Origin: Minisyncoccota bacterium
GTDB taxonomy: Bacteria > Patescibacteriota > Minisyncoccia > Phycocordibacterales > Phycocordibacteraceae
DNA length: 64,000 nucleotides
Direction: 5' to 3'
Assembly: GCA_028695415.1 (NCBI GenBank)
Contig: JAQVIY010000001.1
Span: 46,784 to 110,783 of the forward strand
Every line of letters starts with the position of its first letter. Within the stretch, counting starts at the first letter, position 1. Made by a program: the position numbers and the translations under genes. Below are positions 1,514 through 57,195 of the stretch, piece by piece. Below the pieces are notes generated by a model. The model was given only the letters and a program-made list of their open reading frames with translations, had not been told where the DNA came from and made no database searches.

Positions 1514-1563
1514 AGGTCCAAAAGTCTGGCAGCAGTTTTGTTATGATAATCGTAAATTAAGTT

Positions 1564-2104: not shown

Positions 2105-2308
2105 ATGGAGGCACAAAAACCTGTGAGTCGATTGAGTTGGGGGCAATACTTATTTGTTGGCGTGGCTATGCTAATCGTTGGTTTTTCGATAACTAATACT
2201 TACGCCGATACTTCCGTCATGTGGAACGTAGGGGCAGGAGTACAGCTCGTAGGATGGGGTTTCTTTATAACAGGCGTAGTGCGCGGGGTAAAAGGAAGAA
2301 CAAAATGA
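2105..2308 (+). CDS. Small 2-TM membrane protein
   Basis: Internal ATG of ORF 1985..2308; two hydrophobic helices. Confidence 0.3.
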   Translation: MEAQKPVSRLSWGQYLFVGVAMLIVGFSITNTYADTSVMWNVGAGVQLVGWGFFITGVVRGVKGRTK

Positions 2309-2796
2309 ATATAAATAAACATTCGTTGTTGGGAGTAGTGATGATAATACCCATCGCACTTATCGTCGCTCTGCACCCAATTCCAGCAAAAGCTTCACTA
2401 CTTTTTCCTGGTTTTAGCTTTCCTTGCCCGGCTGAGATTGGTTGTACAAAAGAACAAACACAGGCACGTGTGCAACTACAGAAACAAGCGGCATACGACG
2501 CGGGATGCCAGAGTTACATAGATAGTCATGGTGGTCACGGCACCTCTGTGTCTGCAAGCGACGGCAGCGAGTGCAAGACGACATGCAGCACCGGATACCA
2601 TCTGAATGCAGTAAACGCGTGCGCTCCAAACACAACAGTTGCTCCGGCTACTTCAAATCAATCGGTATCGCAGAGCGGAAAATATGCCTCCGGGCTTACG
2701 ACACAGCAGATAAATGCCATCGTCGTGCTACTGCAAGCGTTTGGGGCGAGTCAGACGGTCATTGTTCAAGTCGAGGCCGCTTTGCGAGGAAAATAG
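2305..2796 (+). CDS. Secreted Cys-rich hypothetical protein (signal peptide)
   Basis: MNINKHSLLGVVMIIPIALIVALHPIPAKA signal-like N-terminus; AT-rich island. Confidence 0.35.
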   Translation: MNINKHSLLGVVMIIPIALIVALHPIPAKASLLFPGFSFPCPAEIGCTKEQTQARVQLQKQAAYDAGCQSYIDSHGGHGTSVSASDGSECKTTCSTGYHLNAVNACAPNTTVAPATSNQSVSQSGKYASGLTTQQINAIVVLLQAFGASQTVIVQVEAALRGK

Positions 2797-2800
2797 GAAC

Positions 2801-3046
2801 ATGCTCTATTTTCTGCTAATTGTGATCGCTGTTGGTGTGCTTCTCATTTCTCCTGCTGGAAAAAAGATTCTGAAGTGGGCGGCAATAATCGCAGTTATAG
2901 CAGCGGCCCTAAGTGCTGCCGTATTAGGGATCATGTTGATTTCTGAAAAATACGGAGGAACTTGGGGCATACTCGCAGGACTTGCTTTGCTGGGGCTAGT
3001 GCTCAGGATGTTTGGGTTCGGACAGGATGATAAATCCACTGGTTAG
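2801..3046 (+). CDS. Small membrane protein (2-3 TM)
   Basis: MLYFLLIVIAVGVLLI... hydrophobic; internal ATG of ORF 2714..3046. Confidence 0.3.
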   Translation: MLYFLLIVIAVGVLLISPAGKKILKWAAIIAVIAAALSAAVLGIMLISEKYGGTWGILAGLALLGLVLRMFGFGQDDKSTG

Positions 3047-3359
3047 ATTTGCATACCAGAAACGGACACGGTAAACTGACTGGAGTTCATTGAATGTCTC
3101 CCTATCAAATATAGCGGTAATCCGCCACCCAATCTGACAGCCGTGCGACTCTTCGCATAACGAATATAACAGCCACGCGACTTTTCTCTTCGCGAAACTA
3201 TCAAACAAGCAGACAGTCTATGAACGCCTTATTCACAAGGTGTTTTCTTGTATTTATTGCGAGAAGCGCTGTTAGTAATGCTTGTTTCTTGCAGTAGCTC
3301 TGGGTGAAGCAAAATCCGCCACCTGGAGCTACTAGAGGGCACGCGGATAAAAAAATCAC

Positions 3360-5363: not shown

Positions 5364-5374
5364 GAGGAATTCAC

Positions 5375-5560
5375 TTGGGCATGATCGATCTGGTCGAATT
5401 CAAGCAGTTACTGAGCCCCGAGGTGCGTGCTTTGCCTGAAAAGGAGATTGAGCGTATCCGTGAGCTTCAGTACGGCTTTGCTAACGCCATATTTGAGATG
5501 TGGCTTAGGGATCGTCACACCTCGTCCATCGAAGAAAATGAGAACAACACTAAAAGCTGA
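5375..5560 (+). CDS. Small hypothetical protein
   Basis: 61-aa ORF between primase and recombinase. Confidence 0.25.
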   Translation: MGMIDLVEFKQLLSPEVRALPEKEIERIRELQYGFANAIFEMWLRDRHTSSIEENENNTKS

Positions 5561-5703
5561 TATACTACGTAGGTACACAACTTCATACCGAGAGCTTTTT
5601 TATTGCCTGATTAAAATAATCGGGCACGGAAAGGGGCTAAGGTTGTTCAGCGTCTCTCGGGATGTTGTGTACACCAACCTTAGTCCCTTTTTGTATTCCA
5701 CTT

Positions 5704-7566
5704 ATGAAGTCTGCTGAAAAAATAAATGTCATCGGGCACTGCCGAGTGAGCTCTTCAAAACAAGCGCAAGAAGGCGAAAGCCTTAGCGTGCAAGAAGGAA
5801 TCGTTCGTGCGCACGCCGAGCGGAATAATTGGAACATGGTGAAGGTGTGGCACGAGAGCTACTCGGGCCGAAAAGAAACTCGGCCAGTATTTAACGAAAT
5901 TCTTACTTACCTCGATTCTCATCCGAGGCAGATTGAATACTATGTCTTTCGTACCATTGATCGCTTCACGCGCGGTGGTACGGGGATGTATGACCAAATG
6001 AGGAAGGAGCTCTTGAAGCGTGGTGTGGCAATGGTTGATACGAGCGGAATGATTCAGAAATCAAAAAATACTCTTGAGGATTTAGATTTTGAATATTCAT
6101 GGAGCCGTCATTCTCCGAGCGAGATCACGGAAGTTGTGGTAGCGACCACTTCAAAACAAGAAGTAACCAATATTGAGACTCGTATGATTGGGCAAGAGAT
6201 CCGATTAACGCAACAGGGGTACAAGGTTCGACACGCGCAAGACGGCTTCTTGAATACCAAGATTTACGATACCGACGGCAAGAAGCGCACGGTGATGATT
6301 GAGGACCCTATCCGCGCCAAGTATCTTCAGGCAATGTTCGAACTTCGTGCAGAAGGTCAGTTGAGTGATTCAGAGATCGTGAGTCGGGTAAATGCAATGG
6401 GATACCGCAGTCGAGCGCACAAGAAATGGGACAAGAGCCACACGAGAATCCTTGGCGCGGGCGGTGGAAAACTGCTTACGGTGAAGCATTTGCAGGAAAT
6501 CATCCAGCGCCCCATTTACGCAGGTTTAATTTGCGAGAAATGGACGAAGCATAAGCCGGTGAAGGCAAAGTTTGACGGCCTAGTGTCCGTGAACATTTTC
6601 AACAAGGCAAATAGAGGAAAGGTCTTCATAGAAGAAAAAGATGATGGGTCTTATGGAATTCTGTACGACCACTATCCCGATCGTGTCGTCGTGAAGAGAA
6701 TGCGAGACAACCCGCTATTCCCGTATAAGTCGGTGGTGATGTGCCCAGAATGCGGGAAGCCGTTCATGGGAAGTCGCTCACGAAGCAAGAGCGGCAATCC
6801 CGTGCCGTATTACCATTGTTCGCGCAAACACAAGTGGATTGGGTTCAATAAGTCTGCGTTTGAGAAGACAATCGAAGATTATGCGAACCGGCTTTATTTC
6901 TTGCCGGACGAGACAACGAGCATGAAGGCCTCGCTGAAGCACCTGTATAACGAGCGTAAGTCAGAAATCGCTCGTGAGACGGTATCTATGGAGGAAAATG
7001 TCGCTGAGCTAAAGATCCAAAAGAAAGAGGCTTTAGAGGCGTTTAAGGCAGCCACAAGTGAGGTAGTGCGCCGCGAGCTCGAAAGAGATATTGAGCAGCT
7101 TGAGACTCGCATCAACGGATCCGGCGCGGAGCACGCAAGTCTCAAGATTACGGAGTCAGATATCGATGCTTTCATGGAGTACGCAAAAGGCATAATGGAA
7201 CACCCAGCAAAAGCGCTATTGAATACAGTAAATGCGCGCCATCAGGAGTCTCTTTACTCTGTGGTATTCGACGAACTGCCATCTATTACGGAGATGGCTA
7301 ATGGAACACCTAAATTGTCTTGGATTTTCAGGCTTTCTGAGGAATCTCAGACACCTAAATCTGTGTTGGCGGGCCCACTAGGAATCGAACCTAGGCTGTC
7401 GGTTTTGGAGACCGATGTACTACCATTATACGATGGACCCTTCGCACTCACGTACGATACCAGACGCTGGGATGGTTTACCACGAGCGATTTATCCCAAA
7501 CGCAGTCGAGGGGAGTCGAGTGGGGAAAGCCGTCCCAGGCAGGGCGATGCGCGGTATGATAGAGAT
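5704..7566 (+). CDS. Large serine recombinase (resolvase N-domain, recombinase domain, zinc ribbon, coiled coil). No in-frame stop: the frame reads antisense through tRNA-Trp and into the next gene
   Basis: Catalytic motif INVIGHCRVSSSKQ; zinc ribbon CPECGKPF...YYHCSRKHKW. ORF track shows a continuous frame 5662..8466. Confidence 0.8.
7367..7440 (-). tRNA. tRNA-Trp (anticodon CCA), CCA encoded
   Basis: Minus strand GGGTCCA TC GTAT AATGGTA GTAC A TCGGT CTCCAAA ACCGA CAGC CTAGG TTCGATT CCTAG TGGGCCC G CCA. Cloverleaf folds, G73. Confidence 0.85.
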
Positions 7567-8466
7567 ATGCGTTCTCGCACTTCACTCTTCGCGCTTCTGC
7601 TTGTGGCGGGTTTGTTTATAGTACCCGCTATTGCCTCTGCACAAAGCGTACCGTTTTTCGGCCCCATCATCCCCCAGGAAGCTAATCAGGGGCTGTGCCC
7701 GGCGAGTTGGGGTATGGTCATCATCGTCATCAATCGGATTATCGCGTTCATGATCACGCTCGCTATTGTCTTCGTCGCGCCTTTAATGATTGCCTATTCC
7801 GGATTCCTCTTCGTCGTGAATCCTGTAAACGCGAGCGGGAAAGAGAAGGCGAAAGAAATTTTACGGAACACCGTTATCGGCATCGTCATTGCACTCTCGG
7901 GCTGGATGATCGTCGATGCGCTTATGGCGGTGCTCTATAACCCAGGCAATGCTGGCGGGACATGGATGACTATTATCAGGGGAAATACTGCCGATGTGTG
8001 CCTCCCGCAGAAAGGAGCGTTACCTAGCGGTACATTGAATCAAACCGGCACGGTAACGAATGTAGGAGTAAGTCCCGGCGCTGCTACGGGAAGATATACG
8101 TTTGATCCGGGCATAGCCGTACAGACGAAAGACGAATCAGGCCCGCTCTCGAGCTTGCTCTCCTGTATGGCGGGGAAATTACCGGCAGGTGTTGGTAGGA
8201 TTTCCTCGATTTCTGATAGCCTTATAACAAGCGGTCAGAAGACTTTTGCGCAGTGTGCAACGGGTGGCTGTCAGCATCAGGCAAACTCGTGTCATTATGG
8301 AGGCAAGACCTGCATTGGCAGCTCGTATGCCGTTGATTTCGGTGATGATGAAAACATCACAATACTCACGGCCGCTGCAAAGGCTTGCGGTGCTCAAACC
8401 CTCAATGAAGGGACGCATCTGCACGCGAGCGTCGGTGCCGTGAGCGGTTGCGGTTGCGGTCTCTAA
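7567..8466 (+). CDS. Secreted/membrane protein: Sec signal peptide, two TM helices, Cys/His-rich C-terminal domain
   Basis: MRSRTSLFALLLVAGLFIVPAIASA signal peptide. In frame with the upstream recombinase ORF. Confidence 0.5.
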   Translation: MRSRTSLFALLLVAGLFIVPAIASAQSVPFFGPIIPQEANQGLCPASWGMVIIVINRIIAFMITLAIVFVAPLMIAYSGFLFVVNPVNASGKEKAKEILRNTVIGIVIALSGWMIVDALMAVLYNPGNAGGTWMTIIRGNTADVCLPQKGALPSGTLNQTGTVTNVGVSPGAATGRYTFDPGIAVQTKDESGPLSSLLSCMAGKLPAGVGRISSISDSLITSGQKTFAQCATGGCQHQANSCHYGGKTCIGSSYAVDFGDDENITILTAAAKACGAQTLNEGTHLHASVGAVSGCGCGL

Positions 8467-8467
8467 A

Positions 8468-9322
8468 TTAGGACATAGGGTGTCCTAATTTGCGCAGCCA
8501 AGCTTTCTGGCGGCGGGCGTATTGCCAGAGCTTCGCCGAAAGTTTGGGTAACAGTTCAGCCTTCAGTCGCGCCGCGTCCTCCGTAGCTTTAGCGGAGGAG
8601 GACAGATATTCACCGACAATCTTGTATTCGAGCCCGAGCTCGTCAAGACGTGCGTCGCTGGTTTCTTCTCGTACCCGGCGCACTTCGTCAATAAGCCCGC
8701 GCTCAAAGGCGTTTGCGAGACGCGTATCTATTTTCTTTCGTAATTCTTCTCTTGGCGGGTCAATTACTATCCATTCCACCTCATATTTCCCGAGGTTCGA
8801 CCTCGGGGGAACTGCTCCTTGTGCAATGATGATTTCGAGTGCCCGGATGAGCCTCCGTCTGTTCTTCGGGTCAAGTTCGGCGGCGCGGCGGGGATCACGT
8901 TCCTCAATCTGTGCATACAGTTCCTCGTTCGTACATTTCTCCAACTCTTCGCGCAGCGCGGGGTTCGCGTCAGTATTTGCGGGGAGTCCGTGCAGGAGCG
9001 CATCAAAGTAGAAATGAGTGCCGCCAACGAGTATCGGCAGCTTACCTCGTGCGGTTATCTCGTCGATAAGGTGCGTTGCGTCTTGTACAAAGTCTCCTGC
9101 AGAATAATTCTCATTCGCATCGCGAATGTCTATAAGGTGATGGGGCACGCCGCACATCTCCTCAGCCGTGATCTTCTCCGTGCCGATATCGAGCCCGCGA
9201 TACACCTGGCGAGAGTCGACGGAGATAATCTCGCCGTCGCGAGCAAGCGCCTCTTCGATCGCCCGGGAGGATTTACCCGAGGCGGTCGGGCCTATGATGC
9301 ATAGAATGTGGGTACCGGTCAT
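8468..9322 (-). CDS. miaA: tRNA dimethylallyltransferase
   Basis: GPTASGKS P-loop; VDSRQVYRGLDIGTEK. Confidence 0.9.
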   Translation of the reverse strand: MTGTHILCIIGPTASGKSSRAIEEALARDGEIISVDSRQVYRGLDIGTEKITAEEMCGVPHHLIDIRDANENYSAGDFVQDATHLIDEITARGKLPILVGGTHFYFDALLHGLPANTDANPALREELEKCTNEELYAQIEERDPRRAAELDPKNRRRLIRALEIIIAQGAVPPRSNLGKYEVEWIVIDPPREELRKKIDTRLANAFERGLIDEVRRVREETSDARLDELGLEYKIVGEYLSSSAKATEDAARLKAELLPKLSAKLWQYARRQKAWLRKLGHPMS

Positions 9323-10139: not shown

Positions 10140-10386
10140 GCCCTGCTTCGCCAAGGCTACGCAGGGCTACTTCGCTGTGTGTGCACTTCGTAGCTCCATT
10201 TCTGAATGGAGCGAAGTAGTGCCGGGAGAGGCTTGGTCACGCTTTACTAATTCGCTTCGCTCATAAGTATGCGCGACCCCGCCTCGCGACGCTCGGGGAC
10301 TCGCGTATCGCTCCGGCTTTCAAGTCTCTCACGCACGGTGCGCAGGCACCGTGCTTCCCGGCACAGCTTTCGCTTCGCTCAATCTG

Positions 10387-10467
10387 TGCCGGGAGAGAGA
10401 CTTGAACTCTCATGTCTTTCGACGAGGGGTTTTGAATCCCTTGCGTATACCATTTCGCCATCCCGGC
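10387..10467 (-). tRNA. tRNA-Leu (anticodon CAA), type II with long variable arm
   Basis: Minus strand GCCGGGA TG GCG AAATGGTATA CGC A AGGGA TTCAAAA CCCCT CGTCGAAAGACAT GAGAG TTCAAGT CTCTC TCCCGGC A. Confidence 0.75.
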
Positions 10468-10500
10468 AGCGCCCTTCGAAGCTTTACGCGAAGTAGGGCA

Positions 10501-11523
10501 ATGAATTCTAGAGTACCATATGCTAAAATTGTTTTACATATGAATGATGACGCGGCGTATATCCCGACAAAATATGATTCGATCTTCTGGATTGATGTCG
10601 ATCGTATCATCCCGAATCCGTACCAGCCGCGCAAGGTCTTTACCGAAGAGGGGTTGAAGTCGCTCGCAGACAGCATCCGCCAGTACGGCGTGCTCCAGCC
10701 GCTCGTGGTCTCGCGCACCGAAGTCGAGAAGCCGGACGGCGGGCTCGAAAGCCTCTATGAGCTCGTCGCGGGTGAGCGGCGCTTGCGCGCGAGCAGGCTC
10801 GCGGGATTGAAACAAGTGCCGGTCGTTATCCGTCAGGGCGACAACAATCTCACCAAGCTCGAGCTCGCCATCATCGAGAACCTCCAGCGCGAAGACCTGA
10901 ACGCGGTTGACCGCGCGAAGGCGCTCCAGCGGCTCATCGATGAGTTCGGCATCTCACACGCCGAGACTGCCGCGAAGATAGGCAAGAGCCGCGAATATGT
11001 CTCGAACTCTATCCGCCTCCTCTCGCTCCCTGAATATATTCAGGAGGCCATTATCTCGAAAGAAATAAACGAGGGGCACGCCCGCCCCTTGCTCACGCTC
11101 AACAGCCGCCCCGAAGAGCGCGACACGCTCTTCAAGGAGATAACGCTCAAGAAGCTCTCCGTGCGCGCCGCCGAGCGCATCGCGCGCTCCATCGCGCAGG
11201 AGCGCGTGCGTTCGCGTCATCGCAAGTCGCCTGAAATGGTTGAGATAGAGAAATCGCTTACCGAAAGTCTCGGCACGCGCGTCATTATTGAGACGAATGC
11301 CGAGGGCGGCCGTCTCCTTATTGATTTCTTTTCTCCAGACGATCTTCAGCAGCTGGTTGACGCTCTCGCCGCAGAACAACAGGCAGTCGAGATGGCGCCA
11401 AAGGAGGAGGATGCGTATCCGCTATTTCCCAATACCACCCAAGTGTCCGATGATCCGATCGCGCCCGCGGCGCCCGAAGAGACCGAAGACGAGCTCTACT
11501 CGGTCTCCAATTTCAGCGTGTAG
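10501..11523 (+). CDS. parB: Chromosome partitioning protein ParB/Spo0J
   Basis: ParB N-domain GERRLRA with HTH. Start placed after tRNA-Leu; the track ORF start at 10351 overlaps the tRNA. Confidence 0.8.
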   Translation: MNSRVPYAKIVLHMNDDAAYIPTKYDSIFWIDVDRIIPNPYQPRKVFTEEGLKSLADSIRQYGVLQPLVVSRTEVEKPDGGLESLYELVAGERRLRASRLAGLKQVPVVIRQGDNNLTKLELAIIENLQREDLNAVDRAKALQRLIDEFGISHAETAAKIGKSREYVSNSIRLLSLPEYIQEAIISKEINEGHARPLLTLNSRPEERDTLFKEITLKKLSVRAAERIARSIAQERVRSRHRKSPEMVEIEKSLTESLGTRVIIETNAEGGRLLIDFFSPDDLQQLVDALAAEQQAVEMAPKEEDAYPLFPNTTQVSDDPIAPAAPEETEDELYSVSNFSV

Positions 11524-16429: not shown

Positions 16430-17215
16430 TCATGAGATCTCGACGCGGATCGGATGGTGGTCGGAGCCGACGCGATCGGGGAGAACCCCCGCTTTTTTAA
16501 TGAAGAAAGAATGCGATACGAGAATATGATCGAGCTGGGACTGCGAGAGCGGATGCGTGATGCCGCCGTAGAGCGGATTCACCAACTCGTATTCGACAAA
16601 ACGTTTTTCAATAGCGGTGCGTTCGCGGCGATAAAGCAGTGCGTCGCGGAGCGTACCACCGAAGAGCCAATTTAGGGGCGTGATGTGCGGTTTCTCGAGA
16701 ATGTTGAAGTCGCCGCAGACTATTGCCGGTCGCCCCGAAGGGCCCCTTTCGGGGCGTTCTATCATCGCGCGTTCGAACTCTCGCAAGCGCCATGCGGGCT
16801 GGGTGCGGGTGAGGTGGAGGTTGAATACGCGTACCGTGCTTTGAGTATCGGGGAGACAAATATCGGCATAGAGCCCGCCGCGATTGCGCGCCTCAGAGAA
16901 ATGAAAAGGGAACATAAGGCGATTGAAGATTCGCCCGCGGAACGAGAGCGCGTTATCTGGAAAAGGTATCGCGCCCTGCCGCTCGATCGGATAGCGAGAA
17001 AGTATGACGAGATAATCTCGCACGACGCCGCTCCTAAATACGCGGTCGAGGCTTGTGCCTGAGGTAAGGTGATACGGGAGTGTCTGAAGCCGCGCGAGAA
17101 AAGCCTCGGGCACTTCTTGGAGACAGAAGATATCGAAATCAGCACGCGAAATAAATTCGAACGCCCGATCAAGCTCACGATTGCGGAAAAGAAGATTCCA
17201 CGAGTAAATCGTCAT
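16430..17215 (-). CDS. Endonuclease/exonuclease/phosphatase (EEP) family protein
   Basis: CGDFNILE and SDHHPIRVEI motifs. Confidence 0.75.
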   Translation of the reverse strand: MTIYSWNLLFRNRELDRAFEFISRADFDIFCLQEVPEAFLARLQTLPYHLTSGTSLDRVFRSGVVRDYLVILSRYPIERQGAIPFPDNALSFRGRIFNRLMFPFHFSEARNRGGLYADICLPDTQSTVRVFNLHLTRTQPAWRLREFERAMIERPERGPSGRPAIVCGDFNILEKPHITPLNWLFGGTLRDALLYRRERTAIEKRFVEYELVNPLYGGITHPLSQSQLDHILVSHSFFIKKAGVLPDRVGSDHHPIRVEIS

Positions 17216-18070
17216 ACTCTATGCCACGCCCCAAACTCTTCTTTTGCGAGGCCGCGCAGCTCGAGGGCGACGAGTGCGGTGAGTGCCTCGCCTGCGGGTA
17301 TACCTGCCGCGCGGAGTATCTCGTCGCGCGTTTTCGGCTCGTCAAGCATACCCCAGATAACGCGCTCGGCGTCCTCGAGGTCGCTCGGCGCCACGTCGCT
17401 TACCGCGCCTTCGCGTGGCGGTATCCCGAGCGCCTCGAGGATATGCAAGGGCTCGGTGACGAGCGCTGCGCCGAGGCGGATGAAGAGGTGCGGGCCAAAC
17501 GCGTGCGGGTCGCCGATACGGTGCGGGATACAGAGCAGGTCGCGATTATATTCGGAAGCGAGCCGCGCGGTGATAAGCGTACCCGACTTATTCCCGGCTT
17601 CGATAACAAGCACCGCATCAGCGAGCCCGACCATAAGGCGATTGCGCGCGGGGAAGTAGTGCGCGCGCGAGGCTTCGTCCGGCGGATATTCAGAAAGCAT
17701 TCCGCCACCCTTCTCTAGTATCTCTTTCGCGAAGCCGCGATTACTCCGTGGGTAGAGGACATCGTCGCCGAGACCTGATCCCGGAAGAACGAGCGTGTGG
17801 AGTCCGGCGGCGAGCGCCGCTTTATGCGCGCAGGTATCAACGCCGAGCGCGAGACCGCTCACTATCGAAATAGGGTAGCCGGCGAGTCCGGCGATAAGCT
17901 TTTCGCACGCCTCCTGTCCGTAGCGCGTCATCGCGCGGCTACCGACGACCGTAAGGAGCTTATGTCCCTTGGGCGGGAGCGCGCCGCGCAACCAGAGCTG
18001 TTTTGGTTGTTGCGGTATCTCACGAAGTTGTGCAGGCCACTCTTCTCGCTCGAGTTCGCGGATTTCCATG
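17212..18070 (-). CDS. dprA: DNA processing protein DprA (Smf)
   Basis: Rossmann core VVGSRAMTRYG...IVSGLALGVD...FPARNRLMVGL...GSLITARLA. Start at internal ATG 18070 (MEIRELE). Confidence 0.8.
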
Positions 18071-18119
18071 GTTTGTAGTATAACGTGCTTTAGTAACTGA
18101 TCCCTGAAAGGAGGATGGT

Positions 18120-18638
18120 ATGAAAGAGGGCGATCCGTTCTTATTGAAGATCGACCGAACTCGGTCATTTGATCCTGTGCGGTTTTACGGAAAGGGGTGG
18201 ACGATTTGGCGCCACTCACCTTTTGGTCATGATGGTCTCAAAGGTGATGAAGACGAAGAAAAGAGCTCACTCGTTCTTAAGGGAATAAACTTCGTACAAA
18301 TCAGCTTCGAGACGTGTCTCAAGAAAGGGGAGACGGTCATCACTGGCGACGAGAAGATTATCAGGCACGCTCGAGCCGGACACACACAATTCGACGCGCG
18401 CATCGCAGAATGTCTTCTCGACGAAGAGGGGTGGGTGACACTTGAAGCAGTGTATGCAGGGTGGGGTATGGACAGCTTCGAATTCACCGGTACGAGGTTG
18501 CGAAGCTTGGCTGGCCGCCGGGCAGTCGTATGTCTCAATCGCGATATCGATCCTTGTGGCCGTGTACGTTGGAGGCCAACCTACGAATGGATCAGTCTCG
18601 TCGTCTACGGTCGGCACCCATCGATCATCCTAGCCTAG
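18120..18638 (+). CDS. Hypothetical protein
   Basis: 172-aa ORF with RBS ggaggatggtATG; terminator hairpin 18655..18693 downstream. Confidence 0.45.
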   Translation: MKEGDPFLLKIDRTRSFDPVRFYGKGWTIWRHSPFGHDGLKGDEDEEKSSLVLKGINFVQISFETCLKKGETVITGDEKIIRHARAGHTQFDARIAECLLDEEGWVTLEAVYAGWGMDSFEFTGTRLRSLAGRRAVVCLNRDIDPCGRVRWRPTYEWISLVVYGRHPSIILA

Positions 18639-21711: not shown

Positions 21712-22842
21712 ATGGACATTATGAAGTCGTTTTGGCAAGGCTTACCTAAGCCGTTTTTCGCGATGGCACCGATGAAGGATGTCACAGACGCGGCGTTTCG
21801 CGCGCTCGTCGCTCGACGAGGCGCGCCAGATGTGTACTGGACAGAGTTCGTTTCTGCTGATGGCCTCTACCACACACGCGAGATACAGAAGATGAAAGAC
21901 GAGGACCCTACGTCGCTCGGAAGCTATGAAGGGCACAGGAATCCGCTCATGCGCGATCTCGTGTATGGAGCCGATCAGCACCCCATTGTCGCACCACAAG
22001 GGCACTTCCATTTTCCTAACCCTGGGTACAGGGAAGGAAAATTGGTCGCACCACAAGGGCACTTCCATTTTCCTAGCCCTGGGTACAGGGAAGGAAAATT
22101 GGTCGCACAGATATTCTCGGACAAGCCGGAGATGATAGCGTATGCGGCGAAGCTCGTCGCCGAACTCGGTTTCGACGGCGTCGATATAAATATGGGCTGC
22201 CCTGACCGCTCGGTCGAGAAGCAGGGTGCCGGTGCCGCGCTTATCAAGAGTCCTGAAAAGGCGCGTGCGATTATTCGCGCCGCAAAAGCAGCGAGCAATC
22301 TACCGGTCTCGGTGAAGACGCGGGTAGGGTACAACAAAGAGACACTCGACGAGTGGCTTCCGGCGCTTCTTGAAGAAGCGCCGGCGGCTATCACGCTTCA
22401 TTTGCGCACGCGCAAGGAGCTCTCGCTCGTATCGGCTCATTGGGAGCTTATGAAGAGGGCGGTGGAGCTGCGCGATCAGATCGCGCCCGAGGTGCTCCTC
22501 ATCGGCAATGGCGACGTGACGAGCGTTGCGGAAGGGAAGCGGCTCGCAAAAGAGACGAGATGCGACGGCATTATGATTGGCCGCGGTATGTTCGGCAACC
22601 CGTGGGTTTTCGCGGGCCGCACGTCGGACGATACGCCGCTCGCAGAGAAGCTCGCGGCTCTGATTGAGCTCGCGCACGGCTTTGAGAATCTCTCTCCGCC
22701 AAAGAATTTCGCGATATTGAAAAAACACATCAAGGCGTTCGTGACCGGCTTTGATGGCGCGGCGCACTTCCGCGCGAAGCTGATGGAGGCGGAGAATGTC
22801 ACCGAGCTCGAGCAAATACTGAAAACATCTAGCTACGTATAA
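21712..22842 (+). CDS. dus: tRNA-dihydrouridine synthase (Dus family) containing an in-frame 2x20-aa tandem duplication
   Basis: APMKDVTDAAFR; DINMGCP; duplicated APQGHFHFP(N/S)PGYREGKLV inserted in the HPI..QIFSDKPE loop. Confidence 0.85.
   Translation: MDIMKSFWQGLPKPFFAMAPMKDVTDAAFRALVARRGAPDVYWTEFVSADGLYHTREIQKMKDEDPTSLGSYEGHRNPLMRDLVYGADQHPIVAPQGHFHFPNPGYREGKLVAPQGHFHFPSPGYREGKLVAQIFSDKPEMIAYAAKLVAELGFDGVDINMGCPDRSVEKQGAGAALIKSPEKARAIIRAAKAASNLPVSVKTRVGYNKETLDEWLPALLEEAPAAITLHLRTRKELSLVSAHWELMKRAVELRDQIAPEVLLIGNGDVTSVAEGKRLAKETRCDGIMIGRGMFGNPWVFAGRTSDDTPLAEKLAALIELAHGFENLSPPKNFAILKKHIKAFVTGFDGAAHFRAKLMEAENVTELEQILKTSSYV
21989..22108 (+). repeat. Tandem 60-bp duplication (2 copies, 1 mismatch) inside dus
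   Basis: gcaccacaagggcacttccattttccta(a/g)ccctgggtacagggaaggaaaattggtc repeated twice. Confidence 0.8.
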
Positions 22843-22876
22843 AAAAGCAACCGCCCGAGTACAACCGGGCGGTTTT
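22609..22876 (+). repeat. Direct repeat copy 1: dus 3' end plus terminator (~268 bp), about 90% identical to 23555..23822
   Basis: Visible alignment of both copies, including the ccgcccg..ccgggcggtttt terminator hairpin. Confidence 0.8.
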
Positions 22877-22887
22877 CAAGAAGCGGC

Positions 22888-23451
22888 TTAGCGGATGAGA
22901 ATGATCGCGGTTATCACGACATTCAGCAGTCCGGCACCGACGGCGACAAAGATATTCGCGAAATCACGTTTCTCTGCGCCGAGCACCACGAAGAGGCAAG
23001 AGACGATTGTCAGAAGCCACAGCCAGAGCGTGCCCGGCTGGGGCTCGGACCAGTAGTCCTTCATAAGCGGCACGAACGAGATCCACATCGCCGTCATGTA
23101 GGCCCACTGCGCCCGAAGTGCATCGAGCGTAATCCAGAGTACGATTGCAACGACCACCAGGGCGGTGGACGAATATTCCGTCCATCTCCAGACTGATGGT
23201 TGGTCGCTTGTGGCGACGACGACGAAGATCAGGAATGCAGCCATCGCCCATCCGATCTGCAGGTACGGCTTTTTGTTGCCACCGCGCCATGCGAGAACGA
23301 GCCCCAGCAGGTCAAGGACAAACACCATCATCCACGTCGCGACATTTTGCTTGACGTTCGTCGTGTACAGCATCCACGCATAGTACGTGGGAATCGCGAA
23401 GCCCATGAGGCCGCCGATCAGTATTGCTTGGGACTTTAGAACTCGTTCCAC
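22888..23451 (-). CDS. Integral membrane protein (about 6 TM), GTG start. Cargo of the dus 3'-end insertion
   Basis: Hydrophobic profile; RBS gaggag 6 nt upstream; promoter TTGACA-17-TACGAT within the palindrome at 23520..23535. Confidence 0.5.
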   Translation of the reverse strand: MERVLKSQAILIGGLMGFAIPTYYAWMLYTTNVKQNVATWMMVFVLDLLGLVLAWRGGNKKPYLQIGWAMAAFLIFVVVATSDQPSVWRWTEYSSTALVVVAIVLWITLDALRAQWAYMTAMWISFVPLMKDYWSEPQPGTLWLWLLTIVSCLFVVLGAEKRDFANIFVAVGAGLLNVVITAIILIR

Positions 23452-23554
23452 GAGTGTCTCCTCAAGAGGTTGAAAGGACAGAGCTACCTACTAGCTTGCG
23501 GTGAATCGTACACCATATGACTTGACATGTCAAGTTCCTGTCTACCGCCTGCTA

Positions 23555-23822
23555 TTCGCGGGTCGTACGAGCGAAGACACGCAGCTCGCAGAGAAGCTCG
23601 CGGCTCTGATTGAGCTCGCGCACGGCTTTGAGAATCTCTCTCCGCCAAAGAATTTCGCGATATTGAAAAAACACATCAAGGCGTTCGTGACCGGCTTCGA
23701 CGGCGCAGCGCACTTGCGCGCGAAGTTGATGGAGGCCGAGAACGCGAGCGAGCTTGAGCAGGCGCTTAAAGTTTCCGGTCATATATAAAAAACGACCGCC
23801 CGTTTAGAACCGGGCGGTTTTA
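23555..23822 (+). pseudogene. Duplicated dus 3' fragment (pseudo-ORF 23501..23788) plus duplicated terminator; direct repeat copy 2
   Basis: Translation FAGRTSEDTQLAEKLAALIELAHGFENLSPPKNFAILKKHIKAFVTGFDGAAHLRAKLMEAEN matches the Dus C-terminus. Confidence 0.75.
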
Positions 23823-23841
23823 GATTACTGACTAACGACGG

Positions 23842-24276
23842 TCAGCCGGCGAGGAGAAAGACCGAAAGGATTGTGGTCCCCAGTCCCACCCACTGCTTGG
23901 CGGAAAGAGTCTCTCCGCTCACTAGATAGTTGAACAAGGGCGAGACGACCACCATCATGATGATGACCGTCATGATGAACTGTCCAGTCGGCACCTGCGG
24001 GTCGGCAGCCTTCATCGAATAGTAGTAGACGGCTGCTCCATTGATTGCACCCGCGGCAAGCAGGATCAAACAGGCATACAGGGTTGGTATGGGTTGGACC
24101 CGTATCGAGGTGTACGCGAACGCGATGCCTCCGATCGCTGAGCCAATGATGACGATGGTGTTGACCCATGCCCCGGTCGCTTGGGAGTATTTCCCGACAA
24201 TCGGCCACATGACAAATGCGGTGCCGATACCGAGCGCCCACAGAATGTGGGACAGATTGAGAGCTGGTGTGTTCAT
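23842..24276 (-). CDS. EamA/DMT-like small membrane transporter (4 TM)
   Basis: Four hydrophobic helices, 144 aa. Confidence 0.5.
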   Translation of the reverse strand: MNTPALNLSHILWALGIGTAFVMWPIVGKYSQATGAWVNTIVIIGSAIGGIAFAYTSIRVQPIPTLYACLILLAAGAINGAAVYYYSMKAADPQVPTGQFIMTVIIMMVVVSPLFNYLVSGETLSAKQWVGLGTTILSVFLLAG

Positions 24277-24405: not shown

Positions 24406-25434
24406 ATGGCGCACCAGTCTCTCTATCGGACGTATCGTCCAGCAACCTTCGCAGAGGTCGTGGGGCAGGAGCAGGTGACGAAGCCGCTTGAAGAAGCGGT
24501 GAGGTCGAAGAACATCGGACATGCCTACCTCTTCTCGGGCAGCCGCGGGTTGGGGAAGACTTCTGTCGCGCGCATCTTCGCAGACGCGATCGGCTGTACC
24601 GGGAACGATCTCTACGAGATAGACGCGGCGAGTAACAACAGTGTCGAGGATATTCGCACGCTTACCGAGGGCGTCTACACGCTTCCGTTCAACTCGCCTT
24701 ATAAGGTCTACATTCTCGACGAGGTGCATATGCTCTCGAAGGGCGCGTGGAACGCGTTCTTGAAGACGCTTGAGGAACCGCCGGCACACGCGGTGTTCAT
24801 CTTGGCGACGACTGAACTCGAGAAAGTGCCGGAGACGGTGCAGTCGCGTTGCCAAGTTTTTGAATTCAAGAAGCCGACGCGAGCCGTGCTCGCTAGAATG
24901 GTCGCGGCAGTGGCAAAGAAGGAAGGATACACACTCGCGCCCGACGCCGCCGAGCTTATTGCGCTCCTTGCTGACGGTTCATATCGCGACGCGCTCTCGG
25001 TGTTGCAAAAGGTCATCGCAGGTACGACCGATAAAAAACTAGAACGGAAGGAGGTAGAAGCGACAACTGGCGCACCGAAGCGCGAGTTGGTGCATGCGCT
25101 TATAAGCGCGCTCGCCAAGGGCGAGCGCGGGGGCGCACTCACCGCGATAGAGAAGGCGGCAAAGGCAGATGTCGATATGCGACTCTTCTTGGAGCTCGTT
25201 CTTGAAGCGCTCCGCGCAACACTTCTCATCCGTTACGCACCAGACCTCCGTACCTCGCTTACCGAAGAGCTCGGCGCAGACGAATTCGCCGCGCTCGAGG
25301 CATTCGCGAAAGAGAAGGGCATTACGCATGCGACCATGCTCGCATTCCTTACCGCCGCCGATCGTATCCGCTACGCACCGATTCCTGCGCTGCCACTCGA
25401 ATTAGCGGTTTTGGAGTTGTTCCCCGAAGCATAA
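24406..25434 (+). CDS. dnaX: DNA polymerase III subunit gamma/tau (short form)
   Basis: YRPATFAEVVGQE; P-loop GSRGLGKTS; DEVHML; SRCQ. Confidence 0.85.
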   Translation: MAHQSLYRTYRPATFAEVVGQEQVTKPLEEAVRSKNIGHAYLFSGSRGLGKTSVARIFADAIGCTGNDLYEIDAASNNSVEDIRTLTEGVYTLPFNSPYKVYILDEVHMLSKGAWNAFLKTLEEPPAHAVFILATTELEKVPETVQSRCQVFEFKKPTRAVLARMVAAVAKKEGYTLAPDAAELIALLADGSYRDALSVLQKVIAGTTDKKLERKEVEATTGAPKRELVHALISALAKGERGGALTAIEKAAKADVDMRLFLELVLEALRATLLIRYAPDLRTSLTEELGADEFAALEAFAKEKGITHATMLAFLTAADRIRYAPIPALPLELAVLELFPEA

Positions 25435-25547
25435 GTTACCCAGACCTATTCCCTGGCAACATAACACCATGAGAATATGCACACGCATCAAATTTAGAAG
25501 AGGTGTTGCACTGCTATACTGTACGTGGTAGTAATCAATTAACATTT

Positions 25548-25811
25548 ATGTCTGCTGAAGATACCCAAAAAGCCATACGTTCTGCATATGAGTACCTTGT
25601 AGGCGCCCTTGTGGCGACTGGCGTTAAGCCTGAGAACACGTCAAACTTTAGAGTCGAGGAGGCTGAAATGAACGATAAGGGGAACTTTAGAATAACTTTG
25701 AGCTATGAGGTGGTTGGGCAATTTGCCTTTGAAAGAGAGAAGGAATTGAAGGATTTTGAGATACAGCCAGACGGTAAGGTGCTTTGGATGAAAATCCGTC
25801 CTAAGGCATAG
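25548..25811 (+). CDS. Small hypothetical protein (possible partner/antitoxin of the downstream PIN protein)
   Basis: AT-rich islet; 4-nt gap to the next gene. Confidence 0.35.
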   Translation: MSAEDTQKAIRSAYEYLVGALVATGVKPENTSNFRVEEAEMNDKGNFRITLSYEVVGQFAFEREKELKDFEIQPDGKVLWMKIRPKA

Positions 25812-25814
25812 TTT

Positions 25815-26342
25815 GTGTATTCGTATCGCGAGATACAGGACTTTTGTCGTAAATATACAGGCAAAAGACCGTTAATTATAGACGCGAACCTACTGGTCTT
25901 ATTTATAGTAGGGAGCTGTGATCCGGACTATATCATCCATTGTAATAAAACAAGAACCTATTCAAAAGAAGACTTTGAACTGCTTTTGAAAATAATAAAG
26001 TGCTTCAAGCCTGAAATCGTTGTAACCCCACACGTTCTTGCCGAAGTATCAAACCTGTACAAAGGAATGCCTGGGCACAAACACGACCTTTATTTCCGCA
26101 GGTTTATAGAAAGACTTCGGGGGTACCAAGAGGAGCATATAAGTCTACAAAGCATCATCGATTTTGACCTTAAGGTTGTCGTCCGTCTCGGAATACCCGA
26201 TGTGGCAGTAGTAGAGGCTGGTCGTTTACAAAATGCCGTGATAATAAGCGCTGATTTTGGATTAGTAGACTTCGCTTTAAGAAAAGGCATTCCTGCAATT
26301 CACTTTACGAGTGTTAGACTAGGAGGAGCACTCCCAAACTAA
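25815..26342 (+). CDS. PIN-domain protein (VapC-like ribonuclease fold)
   Basis: Four acidic PIN positions: LIIDANLL, HVLAEVSNL, GIPDVAVVE, IISADFGL. Confidence 0.55.
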   Translation: MYSYREIQDFCRKYTGKRPLIIDANLLVLFIVGSCDPDYIIHCNKTRTYSKEDFELLLKIIKCFKPEIVVTPHVLAEVSNLYKGMPGHKHDLYFRRFIERLRGYQEEHISLQSIIDFDLKVVVRLGIPDVAVVEAGRLQNAVIISADFGLVDFALRKGIPAIHFTSVRLGGALPN

Positions 26343-41062: not shown

Positions 41063-43114
41063 GTGACTAACTTCAAACCTCATTTTCCATACCAGCCGGC
41101 GGGCGACCAGCCCGAGGCTATCAAGACTCTTGAGAAAGGGCTCTTGAAGGGTATGCGTCATCAAACACTCTTTGGCGCGACGGGTACGGGTAAGACGTTT
41201 ACTGTTGCAAATGTCATCGCGAAGCTCGATAAGCCGACTCTTGTCCTTGCACATAACAAGACGCTTGCCGCGCAGCTCGCGCAAGAATATCGTTCATTCT
41301 TCCCCGAGAACGCGGTGCACTATTTCGTCTCCTATTACGACTACTATCAGCCCGAAGCATATATCGCGCACTCCGATACGTATATAGAGAAAGAAGCGAT
41401 GATCAACGCCGAGATAGATCGCTTGCGTCACGCGGCGACTCAAGCATTACTCACGCGCAAAGATGTCATTATTGTCGCGTCAGTGTCCGCAATCTACGGG
41501 CTCGGTTCGCCTGAAGAGTATGAGAAAGTGCACGTAAAGATACAGAAACAGGAGACCGTCGAAGGAGGCAGGGGTGGATTGATACGGAAGCTCGTCGGTA
41601 TTTACTTTGAACGTACGAATGCAGATCTTAATCCCGGACAGTTGCGCGCCATCGGCAACTCGCTTGAGTTCATGCCGGTAAATGAGCGTGTGATGTATCG
41701 CGTCGCGTTTGATGGCGATACGGTGGCACGCATTGATCAGCTTGACCCGGTCTCGCGCGCAAAAGTTGCGGAACTTGAGTCGGTCTTCGTCTTCCCGGCG
41801 AAGCACTTCGTGACAAATGAAGACGAGCGCGCCCGCGCCATCGAGGACATCAAGCTTGAACTCGACGAACAGCTCGCGAAGTTCAAACGCGAAGAGAAGC
41901 CCTTGGAAGCTGAGCGTCTGAAACGCCGCACGCTTCACGACCTCGCTCTTATCCGCGAGCTCGGGTATACGACGGGTATCGAGAATTACTCGCGGCATTT
42001 CGATGGGCGCAAAGCAGGAGAACCCCCCTTCACGCTCCTGAGTTATTTCAAACGTTGTGACAAGGATTTCCTCACCGTGATAGACGAGTCGCATGTGACG
42101 GTATCGCAGCTCGGCGGGATGTATGCGGGCGACAAATCGCGCAAGGATACACTCATCGAGTACGGCTTCCGGCTCCCCTCGGCGCGTGATAATCGTCCGC
42201 TCACGTTTGAAGAGTTTGAAGGGCGTACTGGACAGGTGCTCTACACGAGCGCTACGCCGGGGCCGTATGAAAAAGCACACTCTGAACAGATTGTTGAACA
42301 GGTTATCCGCCCGACTGGTCTCCTCGATCCTGAACTTACCGTGCGTGGTGTGATCGAGACGAAAGAGTATAAGGGTCAGATAGCAGACTTTATTGAAGAA
42401 GCGGGAAAGGTCATACAGAATGGCGGCAGAGCGCTCGCGACGACGCTCACCAAACAGATGGCAGAAGATCTTGCATCGTTCCTGCGCGAGAAGGGTATCA
42501 AGGCGGAATATCTCCACTCTGACGTGAAGACGATAGACCGTATTGATATTCTCACGAAATTCCGCAAAGGCGAGTTCGACATTCTCGTCGGCGTAAATCT
42601 CCTTCGTGAGGGGCTCGATCTTCCCGAAGTCGAGCTCGTGGGTATCCTCGACGCCGACAAAGAGGGCTTCCTCCGCAGCGAGACTTCACTTATCCAGACA
42701 ATCGGTCGTGCGGCGCGCAATGTGCTCGGGCGCGTCATTCTCTATGCCGATGTGATGACGGGCTCACTCGAACGCGCGATAGGGGAGACGAATCGCCGTC
42801 GCGAAAAGCAGATTGCTTATAACCAAGAGCATGGCATTACCCCGACAACCATAAAGAAAGAAATACACGATATCGCTGCGTCGATGCGTACCGAGCATCA
42901 AAAGACGGTGGACGACCTGCTCGCGCTCGACACAATTGCCTACAAAGATGACCCGAAAGCGTTCATCACGCAGAAGCGACTTGAGATGGCCGAAGCCGTA
43001 GAGAGTCTGGACTTCGAGACCGCCGCCCTCATCCGCGATGAGATCTATAAGCTCGAAGGCACCGGTCCCAAGGCAAAAAAGCCCCGCACCCGCAAGCCGT
43101 TGTCAGGAGGTTGA
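41063..43114 (+). CDS. uvrB: Excinuclease ABC subunit B
   Basis: GATGTGKT P-loop, DESH box, C-terminal UVR domain. Confidence 0.9.
   Translation: MTNFKPHFPYQPAGDQPEAIKTLEKGLLKGMRHQTLFGATGTGKTFTVANVIAKLDKPTLVLAHNKTLAAQLAQEYRSFFPENAVHYFVSYYDYYQPEAYIAHSDTYIEKEAMINAEIDRLRHAATQALLTRKDVIIVASVSAIYGLGSPEEYEKVHVKIQKQETVEGGRGGLIRKLVGIYFERTNADLNPGQLRAIGNSLEFMPVNERVMYRVAFDGDTVARIDQLDPVSRAKVAELESVFVFPAKHFVTNEDERARAIEDIKLELDEQLAKFKREEKPLEAERLKRRTLHDLALIRELGYTTGIENYSRHFDGRKAGEPPFTLLSYFKRCDKDFLTVIDESHVTVSQLGGMYAGDKSRKDTLIEYGFRLPSARDNRPLTFEEFEGRTGQVLYTSATPGPYEKAHSEQIVEQVIRPTGLLDPELTVRGVIETKEYKGQIADFIEEAGKVIQNGGRALATTLTKQMAEDLASFLREKGIKAEYLHSDVKTIDRIDILTKFRKGEFDILVGVNLLREGLDLPEVELVGILDADKEGFLRSETSLIQTIGRAARNVLGRVILYADVMTGSLERAIGETNRRREKQIAYNQEHGITPTTIKKEIHDIAASMRTEHQKTVDDLLALDTIAYKDDPKAFITQKRLEMAEAVESLDFETAALIRDEIYKLEGTGPKAKKPRTRKPLSGG
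43058..43098 (+). repeat. Direct repeat copy 1 (uvrB 3' end, 41 bp); matches 43895..43935 at 38/41
   Basis: ggcaccggtcccaaggcaaaaaagccccgcacccgcaagcc vs ggcaccggtcccaaggcaaagaagccccgcactcggaagcc. Confidence 0.8.
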
Positions 43115-43856: not shown

Positions 43857-43894
43857 CACCAAGCCCGGAGCAATCCGGGCTACTTTATTTATAA

Positions 43895-43935
43895 GGCACC
43901 GGTCCCAAGGCAAAGAAGCCCCGCACTCGGAAGCC
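43895..43935 (+). repeat. Direct repeat copy 2 (remnant uvrB 3' end)
   Basis: See copy 1. Confidence 0.8.
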
Positions 43936-43955
43936 CTTTCGGGAAGTTAGTTGAA

Positions 43956-55361: not shown

Positions 55362-56459
55362 ATGCTGAAAATCGGTATTGTCGGTTTGCCGAACGTGGGG
55401 AAGTCCACGCTTTTTAATGCACTCACGAAAGCGAGCGTTCCGGCGGAGAATTATCCGTTTTGCACCATCGACCCGTCGGTCGGGGTGGTCGGCGTGCCCG
55501 ATATGCGTCTCGACAAGCTCGCCGACTTCTCAAAGAGCGAGAAGGTGGTCCCGGCGGCGATAGAGTTCGTTGATATTGCGGGACTCGTGAAGGGCGCGGC
55601 CGAGGGCGAAGGACTCGGGAACCAGTTCCTCGCGAATATCCGCGAGACTGACGCGATACTTGAGCTGGTGCGTTTTTTCGACGACCCGAACATTACCCAT
55701 GTCTCCGAAGAGGTGGAGCCGTACAAGGACATCGAGATTATCAATCTCGAACTCGCTCTCGCCGACGCCGAGCAGGTCAGGAAGCGCCGCGATAAGCTCG
55801 TGCGCGATATCAAAACGGGCAACAAAGATGCGGCCGCCGAGGACGCTGCGCTCGAGAAACTCTCTAAAGGCTTCTCGGAAGGTAAGCTCGCGATAAACGC
55901 CGGGCTCACTGACGACGAAAAGAAGCTCGTCTCGACGCTGAATCTCCTCACGATGAAGCCCATCCTCTATGCGTTCAACAAGAAGAGCGGCGGGCGTAAT
56001 TTGGACGAGCTCGCTGACGGTCGTGCAGATCGCGCGTATGAGCTCATTAGGATGCTCGGCGGACGGCACATCTTCCTTGATGCCGTGACGGAGCGCGAGC
56101 TCAATGACGTTGTCGACGCCGATCGCGACGGATTCCGCCAAGAGCTCGGCGTTTCTGAAGACGGTCTGGCCGAGCTTATCCGCGGCGCGTATGAGACGCT
56201 CGGGCTCATCTCTTTCTTCACCACCGGCACCGATGAGACGCGCGCGTGGACGGTCTCCTCAGGGAGTACCGCGCCGATAGCGGGTGCCGCTATTCATAAT
56301 GATTTCTTGAATAAGTTTATCCGCGCCGAGGTGATTGATTGGCAGAAGCTCCTTGAACTCGGCTCCTACGCCGCCGCCCGCGAGAAGGGCATGGTGCGCG
56401 TCGAAGGCAAGGAATATGTCGTCTCTGACGGCGACGTGATGGTCTTCCTCCACGGGTGA
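55362..56459 (+). CDS. ychF: Ribosome-binding ATPase YchF (Obg-family GTPase)
   Basis: G1 GLPNVGKST; TGS-like C-terminus ...DGDVMVFLHG. Confidence 0.9.
   Translation: MLKIGIVGLPNVGKSTLFNALTKASVPAENYPFCTIDPSVGVVGVPDMRLDKLADFSKSEKVVPAAIEFVDIAGLVKGAAEGEGLGNQFLANIRETDAILELVRFFDDPNITHVSEEVEPYKDIEIINLELALADAEQVRKRRDKLVRDIKTGNKDAAAEDAALEKLSKGFSEGKLAINAGLTDDEKKLVSTLNLLTMKPILYAFNKKSGGRNLDELADGRADRAYELIRMLGGRHIFLDAVTERELNDVVDADRDGFRQELGVSEDGLAELIRGAYETLGLISFFTTGTDETRAWTVSSGSTAPIAGAAIHNDFLNKFIRAEVIDWQKLLELGSYAAAREKGMVRVEGKEYVVSDGDVMVFLHG
56427..56459 (+). repeat. Direct repeat copy 1 (ychF 3' end, 33 bp); matches 57163..57195 at 27/33
   Basis: gacggcgacgtgatggtcttcctccacgggtga vs gccggcgatgtgatgatcttcctccacggctag. 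Both copies end in a stop codon. Confidence 0.7.
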
Positions 56460-57159: not shown

Positions 57160-57162
57160 GCT

Positions 57163-57195
57163 GCCGGCGATGTGATGATCTTCCTCCACGGCTAG
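57163..57195 (+). repeat. Direct repeat copy 2 (remnant ychF 3' end)
   Basis: Translates ...AGDVMIFLHG* in one frame. Confidence 0.7.

Follow-up and report, generated by a model that had tools for sequence, protein, structure and literature searches.

The stretch of DNA analysed here (hereafter the window) comprises 64,000 nt of contig JAQVIY010000001.1 from the Minisyncoccota bacterium assembly GCA_028695415.1 (positions 46,784 to 110,783). In the window, the tRNA-dihydrouridine synthase gene dus and the downstream gene dnaX are separated by two genes on the opposite strand, one for a 187-aa membrane protein (the cargo gene, cargo187) and one for a 144-aa EamA-like membrane protein (eamA144). 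Between these two lies a second copy of the dus 3' end together with its terminator. The upstream copy (A) and the downstream copy (B) form a direct repeat of 268 nt, lie 946 nt apart (blastn, E = 1e-78) and bracket the cargo gene (Table 1). An earlier note, made from the sequence alone, had described this repeat, and its coordinates are confirmed, as are an upstream dus that is kept intact and a downstream pseudo-open reading frame (pseudo-ORF, 23501-23788) that spans the coding part of copy B. Its estimate of about 90% identity between the copies was too high, the measured value being 85.8%.

The identity of the two copies is very unevenly spread. The coding part of copy A is the last 234 nt of dus, and all 33 differences in these 234 coding positions fall outside a block of 114 nt without any mismatch (the core), beyond which the copies are 72.5% identical. 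With 33 differences spread evenly over 234 nt, a run of 114 identical nucleotides would be expected by chance with P <= 2.7e-9. The segment matching the core in a related locus (L004) is about 20% different, as judged by eye, and the core is thus not an ultraconserved stretch. The left edge of similarity is abrupt, at about 22609/23555: the preceding 70 nt align no better than shuffled sequence, and no extension of homology 5' of the repeat was found by alignment against shuffles. The right edge coincides with the end of the terminator T run. The terminator hairpins of the two copies are homologous; with a T run following on both strands, either of them can stop transcription of a pair of converging genes. 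An Rfam scan of the dus region gave no match.

In the flanks of the core, synonymous sites are saturated (synonymous divergence, dS, 1.71) and non-synonymous divergence (dN) is 0.18, giving a dN/dS of about 0.1. One of the differences is a three-base TCG/AGC serine switch. The coding part is free of indels, and the frame and the stop codon are retained in copy B. Non-synonymous changes make up 45% of the differences, against about 65% expected under decay in place (binomial p about 0.01-0.02), and this test is conservative because synonymous sites are saturated. Given the saturated dS, the low dN, the absence of coding indels and the retained frame and stop, both copies evolved as functional dus ends, and almost all of their divergence built up while they were working ends in separate genomes. 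Divergence that built up before the copies came to reside together is of no use for dating the event. The dating from repeat divergence proposed in the earlier note is thus invalid, as the divergence (dS 1.7) arose beforehand in two separate functional genes. Copies A and B, tails and hairpins included, are closer to each other than to any sampled relative, so their parents were related to each other yet are absent from public data. Comparison with the Dus C-termini of about 80 relatives did not resolve which copy is native and which is foreign.

The gene order serS-ftsQ-dus-dnaX is kept in about 160 related loci, which were drawn from GTDB genomes and metagenomes and encode Dus proteins 42-71% identical to that of the window. 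In the 115 distinct loci that hold both dus and dnaX, the gap between them is at most 60 nt in 52 (modal spacing 7 nt), 61-300 nt in 10, 301-1000 nt in 40 and over 1 kb in 13. In total, 63/115 carry inserts, which reach 3 kb, and the uninterrupted state, in which dus is followed directly by dnaX and which the earlier note had suggested looking for, is found in the other 52. The filled gaps of the 73 GTDB-representative loci examined hold more than 40 unrelated ORF families. With 52 of 115 gaps empty and so many families in the others, the dus-dnaX junction is a hypervariable hotspot in which the uninterrupted state is common. The ten largest gap ORFs of the relatives include one DDE transposase (L050) and no tyrosine or serine recombinase. 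By its sequence, this hotspot appears to fit the minimal-mobile-element type, with unrelated content between two fixed genes and no mobility genes, and it is a newly described one in an under-studied phylum.

Both genes of the window also occur singly at this site in relatives. In L004 (51% identity) and L085 (64%), the gap is occupied solely by a homologue of cargo187 that converges on dus, and nothing is duplicated; EamA-like homologues lie in the gap of L007, L009 and L076 with neither the cargo gene nor a duplication. A second dus end or a dus-end repeat is found in none of the approximately 160 related loci.

The window thus seems to hold two alternative arrangements of the hotspot in tandem, joined by one illegitimate junction at 23554/23555. 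The order is dus, terminator A, cargo187 and its promoter; then the junction; then the truncated dus end, terminator B, eamA144 and dnaX. The repeat is the part common to both arrangements, the dus end plus terminator, and therefore ends exactly at the terminator. The repeats stop where the two arrangements cease to be homologous, as homology-driven recombination would predict and an att site would not. The marks of such a recombination were found together here: a boundary at the end of homology with an abrupt non-homologous join, two functional alleles, and separate parental arrangements. On this evidence the dus structure is probably the scar of homology-anchored illegitimate or single-crossover recombination, and not an autonomous or trans-mobilised element. 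The more general view of the earlier note, that an insertion-type rearrangement took place at the dus 3' end and left dus with a complete end, agrees with these results.

The following events would account for the scar. In this Paceibacteria-like lineage, dus-terminator-cargo187(-)-dnaX and dus-terminator-eamA144(-)-dnaX are two of the alternative arrangements of the hotspot. DNA of a related strain with one arrangement, which may have been either of the two, would have been taken up by a cell that had the other, natural transformation being the most plausible means. Host homologous recombination would have integrated one side, and the other side would have been sealed by the illegitimate join at 23554/23555. 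By an equivalent route, the fragment may have circularised and entered by a single Campbell-type crossover inside its dus homology. Either route would place the arrangements in tandem with two dus ends of different ancestry, copy A completing the working dus and copy B being left as a 5'-truncated remnant. The 114-nt core would be a tract made alike by heteroduplex repair, a recipient patch in a mosaic transformation tract, or the product of later gene conversion.

The dprA gene found in the window belongs, by its Pfam match, to host machinery that could drive such an event. Conservation of Com and DprA genes extends across the candidate phyla radiation. Saccharibacteria are the only members in which competence has been shown, and they integrate linear DNA through ComEC-dependent homologous recombination (PMC10633639). 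When linear DNA is homologous at one end only, in E. coli it mostly circularises and enters by a single crossover, leaving the homologous segment duplicated over 109-950 bp (PMC3240628). Duplications can also arise in pneumococcus when fragments that have been taken up bridge sister chromatids (PMC3784515).

Table 1. Features of the dus-dnaX region and of related structures in the window, with window positions.
Feature	Position	Strand	Basis or remark
dus (tRNA-dihydrouridine synthase), intact	21712..22842	+	Pfam Dus E = 1.5e-55, to profile position 302/311
Repeat copy A: final 77 dus codons, stop, terminator hairpin	22609..22876	+	blastn
Identical 114-nt core, copy A	22638..22751	+	
Two-way terminator hairpin A, serving dus (+) and cargo gene (-)	22849..22874		
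Cargo gene, 187-aa membrane protein, GTG start	22888..23451	-	ORF; GAGGAG ribosome-binding site
Predicted sigma-70-type cargo promoter	23505..23533	-	TTGACA-17-TACGAT
Putative illegitimate junction: region 5' of cargo promoter fused to dus codon -77	23554..23555		Sharp onset of dus similarity
Repeat copy B: 5'-truncated dus end, probably of another allele, in frame, own TAA stop and terminator	23555..23821	+	
Identical 114-nt core, copy B	23584..23697	+	
Two-way terminator hairpin B, serving dus remnant and EamA-like gene	23795..23818		
EamA-like 144-aa membrane protein, second alternative hotspot occupant	23842..24276	-	Pfam EamA E = 2e-6
dnaX, conserved right flank of hotspot	24406..25434	+	
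uvrB 3' end, copy A	43056..43114	+	Tail ...KPLSGG-stop; followed by inserted 217-aa ORF 43203-43856
Displaced uvrB end, copy B	43893..43955	+	Tail ...KPFREVS-stop; own stop
ychF 3' end, copy A	56425..56459	+	Followed by inserted ORFs 56492-56839 (DUF5674) and 56845-57159
Displaced ychF end, copy B	57161..57194	+	Own stop codon
dprA, predicted mediator of recombination for taken-up single-stranded DNA	17212..18219	-	Pfam DNA_processg_A E = 9e-62
LOOT RNA in low-GC element	1919-2040		
Primase-helicase in low-GC element	3360-5363		AAA_25 + NrS-1 polymerase HBD
tRNA-Trp, genuine	7370-7440		On the opposite strand, crossed by 3' part of recombinase ORF

Two further gene ends are duplicated in the window, those of uvrB and ychF, and both cases look like the same kind of junction as that at dus. 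The last 20 codons of uvrB are duplicated around the 217-aa ORF, and the 15 codons that can be aligned show four synonymous and no non-synonymous differences. The sole homologue of the 217-aa ORF lies between uvrB and uvrA, without a duplication, in a locus from Hainich groundwater (L171). The UvrB tail of L171 (...RLSGN-stop) resembles the cargo-linked copy A (...PLSGG-stop) and is unlike copy B (...PFREVS-stop), and L171 would on this resemblance be a donor-type relative for the uvrB case. The uvrB joint has a possible TATAAG/AAG match, which may represent microhomology. The last 11 codons of ychF are duplicated around a DUF5674 gene and a 104-aa ORF, and the entire structure recurs at 100% identity in an independent Logan assembly (L178, run SRR22315504). 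Contigs identical to the window are obtained from this run. The right edge of both repeats is the stop codon, and their longest runs of identity are 22 nt (uvrB) and 13 nt (ychF). The anchors that are efficient in homology-facilitated illegitimate recombination (HFIR) in the laboratory are roughly 150-180 nt long, and the ychF and uvrB repeats (about 35 and 60 nt) are shorter than this.

Comparable structures are seen in two of the relatives' loci. The last 22 codons of topA are duplicated around a patatin-like gene (L018, 625-694 and 1569-1638), and the serS promoter plus first 11 codons are duplicated around two small genes (L055, 4717-4762 and 5864-5910). Thus, both 3' and 5' gene ends can be duplicated. 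The density of scars is uneven, with three in the 64-kb window versus about two in 1.6 Mb of relatives' loci.

Several points weigh against a recombination scar at dus. A close relative was sought in GTDB species genomes, JGI metagenomes and a collection of 5.8 billion proteins, in which the best Dus identity is 70-71%, and therefore the donor, the true empty site of the species and any microhomology at the junction are not visible. Recombination between flanks that are 72% identical is inefficient, so the core still needs a special explanation. Three scars in 64 kb are denser than sporadic events would suggest. The recombinase survey covers the 49 ORFs of the window, and the evidence for uptake and RecA-loading machinery is the dprA gene found there.

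A more far-reaching proposal, which is regarded as doubtful, is that this lineage routinely gains single genes through recombinase-free, self-targeting cassettes, that is, circular or repeat-flanked fragments carrying a conserved gene end. After uptake, DprA and RecA would insert such a fragment beside the same gene, duplicating the gene end each time. If this were true, the three scars in 64 kb and the topA and serS cases would mark a route by which Patescibacteria regularly gain genes under the guidance of homology, and not a set of rare accidents.

The cargo gene at dus has the GTG start and the extent given in the earlier note. The six transmembrane helices predicted there are not borne out by an AlphaFold model of the protein, which has seven. 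These are arranged in the 3+1+3 triple-helix-bundle architecture of the SWEET/PQ-loop/KDEL-receptor fold, and the protein is thus predicted to have a SWEET/PQ-loop-type transporter fold. It has no Pfam or NCBIfam match, and NCBIfam is likewise null for all of the cargo ORFs. The insert at dus has no further ORF of note and therefore no recombinase, as had been stated in that note. The promoter layout and the 5' untranslated region (UTR) of the cargo gene are conserved in L004, including the 5' UTR motif GAAAGGACA[G/A]AGCT.

All 37 members of the cargo187 family come from Patescibacteria or metagenomes. A search of viral contigs gave no homologue, and the exact cargo protein is not on record in any other assembly. 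A search for the gene elsewhere, which the earlier note had also suggested, places its homologues in at least four contexts: the dus-dnaX gap (L004, L085), a NUDIX / 356-aa / GIY-YIG neighbourhood (L082, L087-L090), between fusA and tuf (L175-L177), and adjoining a Q_salvage gene (L174). Direct repeats flanking the homologues were looked for in all four contexts and none were found. In the third context (L175, 5001-5558; also L176 and L177), the cargo homologue interrupts the otherwise conserved gene string rpsL-rpsG-fusA-tuf-rpsJ.

A Pfam scan of the 49 window ORFs for recombinases found one, a large serine recombinase that is encoded by ORF 5662-8466 and has its Resolvase, Recombinase and zinc-ribbon domains within residues 23-391, and no tyrosine recombinase. 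The serine recombinase belongs to a separate integrative element of low GC content (window 1-8490, GC 0.39-0.50 versus 0.55-0.58 elsewhere), the left end of which lies beyond the window, and this element is probably unrelated to the dus, uvrB and ychF duplications. A 27-nt palindrome at 8466-8490, between the recombinase ORF and miaA, is unique in the window. Integron gene cassettes were also considered for the three inserts and rejected: the inserts share no imperfect palindrome or repeat, the 49 ORFs include no tyrosine recombinase, and the cargo gene has its own promoter.

These results bear on the proposal of the earlier note that the dus insert is a mobile cassette, one of a recurrent series served in trans. 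In this explanation, a recombinase-less integrative cassette of the cis-mobilisable or pseudo-SCC (staphylococcal cassette chromosome) type would have carried an attP with a replacement dus end, the recombinase would have acted in trans, and the 114-nt core would be the att block. The layout does recall the attL and attR of elements that target gene 3' ends, with a short left flank, an identical core and a diverged replacement end; moreover, the window holds a large serine recombinase, and three gene 3' ends have been hit. However, that recombinase sits in a separate low-GC element abutting tRNA-Trp, and its junction palindrome has no second copy in the window. No 9-mer or longer word is common to the recombinase junction and any repeat junction, and the 12 repeat boundaries together with the recombinase junction share only chance 8-11-mers and the TGGTATAAT promoter consensus. 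The identity runs at uvrB and ychF are only 22 and 13 nt, the L055 duplication is of a 5' end and so does not fit an integrase targeting 3' ends, and no tyrosine or serine recombinase is among the ten largest gap ORFs of the relatives. Furthermore, cargo homologues stand at the same site and in three other contexts without flanking repeats, and the same unit with the same ends does not recur, a second dus end being absent from the related loci. The trans-mobilised cassette is therefore unlikely. The recurrence at uvrB and ychF that the earlier note had pointed out stands, and is extended by topA and serS in relatives; the trans-acting process it had suggested does not, there being no common site and, among the 49 window ORFs, no cognate recombinase.

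An artefact of the assembly graph is improbable. The chromosome would in this case truly read from the left part of copy A through the core to the right part of copy B (dus-eamA144-dnaX), and the 832-nt block between the cores would come from another strain or molecule and have been threaded into the contig by way of the core. The integrated form and an empty chromosome plus loop would indeed yield an identical de Bruijn graph, and the cargo protein is known from this metagenome-assembled genome alone. In addition, a Logan contig built with k=31 (L081) ends inside the core, a break attributable to the repeat exceeding k. However, the cargo promoter is joined to the left flank specific to copy B (23555-23583, 8 differences from copy A), and this junction, being outside the core, has to be present in some real molecule. 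No replication function is carried by the 946-bp unit, and single reads could span and resolve the core if, as assumed here, typical short reads exceed it in length. At ychF, the identical runs are too short to cause a mis-join, and an independent assembler reproduced the duplication at 100%.

An old tandem duplication in this genome, with later decay of its downstream copy, is highly improbable: it would suit a short segment bounded by direct repeats and a 5'-truncated, non-functional downstream copy, but free decay predicts a much higher dN than is seen at saturated dS, frameshifts are absent and the stop codon has been kept, the core has 0% divergence within flanks that are 27% divergent, a tandem unit of 946 nt would have doubled the cargo gene, which is present once, and a second dus end occurs in 0 of the related loci.

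Other repeated elements occur in and around the hotspot genes. The dus coding region of the window carries two tandem copies of a 57-nt in-frame, hairpin-forming element (21988-22101; RNA fold -20 kcal/mol), adding 2 x 19 aa. One copy is present at the same dus site in L004 (8221-8299; 85-87% nucleotide identity), the substitutions between the window and L004 being on both sides of the stem, and blastn of about 178 loci gave no match beyond L004. The element resembles the in-frame palindromic elements of Rickettsia. Just past dnaX, the window has a low-GC patch (25503-26342, GC about 0.40-0.44) with two adjacent ORFs of 102 and 175 aa, neither with a Pfam or NCBIfam match, and this patch is possibly another recent insertion.

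In relatives, successive small genes 3' of dnaX are flanked by an element of about 68 nt (GGATTTCGTAAACCCCCACTTTGAACCGACCGG...GGCGGCGG) in L012 (6088-6829) and L073 (11622-13773), giving a cassette-array-like layout in these two genomes. In L017 (7690-11270) and L044 (8981-9730), several successive small genes each have a 27-nt element (GGTTCCAACATCGTCCCAGACGGCCAGC) after the stop codon. Both elements are absent from the 64-kb window. A palindrome-containing, promoter-like motif (TTCTCTAATTCGCGCGAATGGTAGAATAG) lies on both sides of an 88-99-aa gene 3' of dnaX in L005, L010, L051 and L069 and is probably a shared operator or promoter.

A repeat at 51348/53661 was tried as a fourth gene-end duplication and rejected, its copies being two tRNA-Ala genes. 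They belong to a tRNA cluster (Ala, Val, Pro, Pro, Ala; 51348-53738) that is split by a 253-aa ORF (52496-53257, minus strand) with a homing-endonuclease-associated HNH_repeat domain, the 3' end of which overlaps tRNA-Pro (52444-52515). Within the cluster, ORF 51706-52182 encodes a 158-aa protein with a weak DUF1003 match, in which a 21-nt periodic repeat (51946-52086) encodes acidic, DVDEIQK-like heptads. Elsewhere in the window, a tRNA-Leu gene (10387-10467, minus strand) overlaps the annotated GTG start region of a parB-like ORF (10351-11523), so the real parB start is probably farther downstream. A 31-nt inverted match (10469-10499 versus 45063-45093, 93.5% identity) adjoins this tRNA-Leu.

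Little is known of how the ultrasmall, host-dependent Patescibacteria gain genes, and integrases and plasmids are rarely seen in their genomes. If they are read as recombination products, the scars provide direct sequence evidence for the stacking of accessory genes, here for a predicted SWEET-fold transporter and an EamA-like protein, at hotspots between conserved genes. Such stacking would draw on the DNA of diverged relatives and on the recombination of the host itself. They also counsel caution, as direct repeats at gene ends are no proof of an integrase-driven element and repeat divergence is no clock.

Among known systems, the dus scar is closest in anatomy to the products of HFIR and of single-crossover insertion-duplication, which have been described for naturally competent bacteria and in E. 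coli (PMC3240628). It shares with these the one-sided homology, the illegitimate join on the other side and the lack of a dedicated recombinase, and the direct duplication of 268 bp is within the 109-950 bp obtained in the single-crossover experiments (PMC3240628). The case differs in being a natural end product in uncultivated Patescibacteria, and in that the duplicated segments are apparently diverged alleles with an identical core. In merodiploids formed by transformation of Streptococcus pneumoniae, fragment ends that pair with non-contiguous places can likewise bridge sister chromatids and leave a tandem duplication; however, those duplications span 100-900 kb and have repeat borders derived from insertion sequences (PMC3784515), whereas at dus the span is 946 nt and the junction is non-homologous.

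The present hotspot has its fixed conserved flanks (here dus and dnaX), its unrelated content and its lack of mobility genes in common with the minimal mobile elements of Neisseria (Saunders and Snyder 2002; Snyder 2007; as cited in PMC3787668). The exchange of those elements is attributed to transformation and homologous recombination; in its classical form it uses homology on both flanks and leaves no duplication. In contrast, the structure at dus appears to have one illegitimate side, two contents are stacked, a gene end is duplicated, and the variation is between species-level relatives rather than close strains.

Cis-mobilisable elements and pseudo-SCC cassettes are recombinase-less and have att repeats at the 3' ends of genes such as fda or rlmH/orfX. 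The dus insert resembles them as a recombinase-less cargo between direct repeats at the 3' end of a housekeeping gene that is left intact. Their repeats, however, are short conserved att sites that are recognised by a known integrase or Ccr across the family, whereas those in the window are locus-specific, end at homology boundaries and have neither a conserved site nor a cognate recombinase among the 49 ORFs. Read as a scar, the dus structure is a natural example of a known recombination outcome, and what is unusual is the density of such scars in the window.

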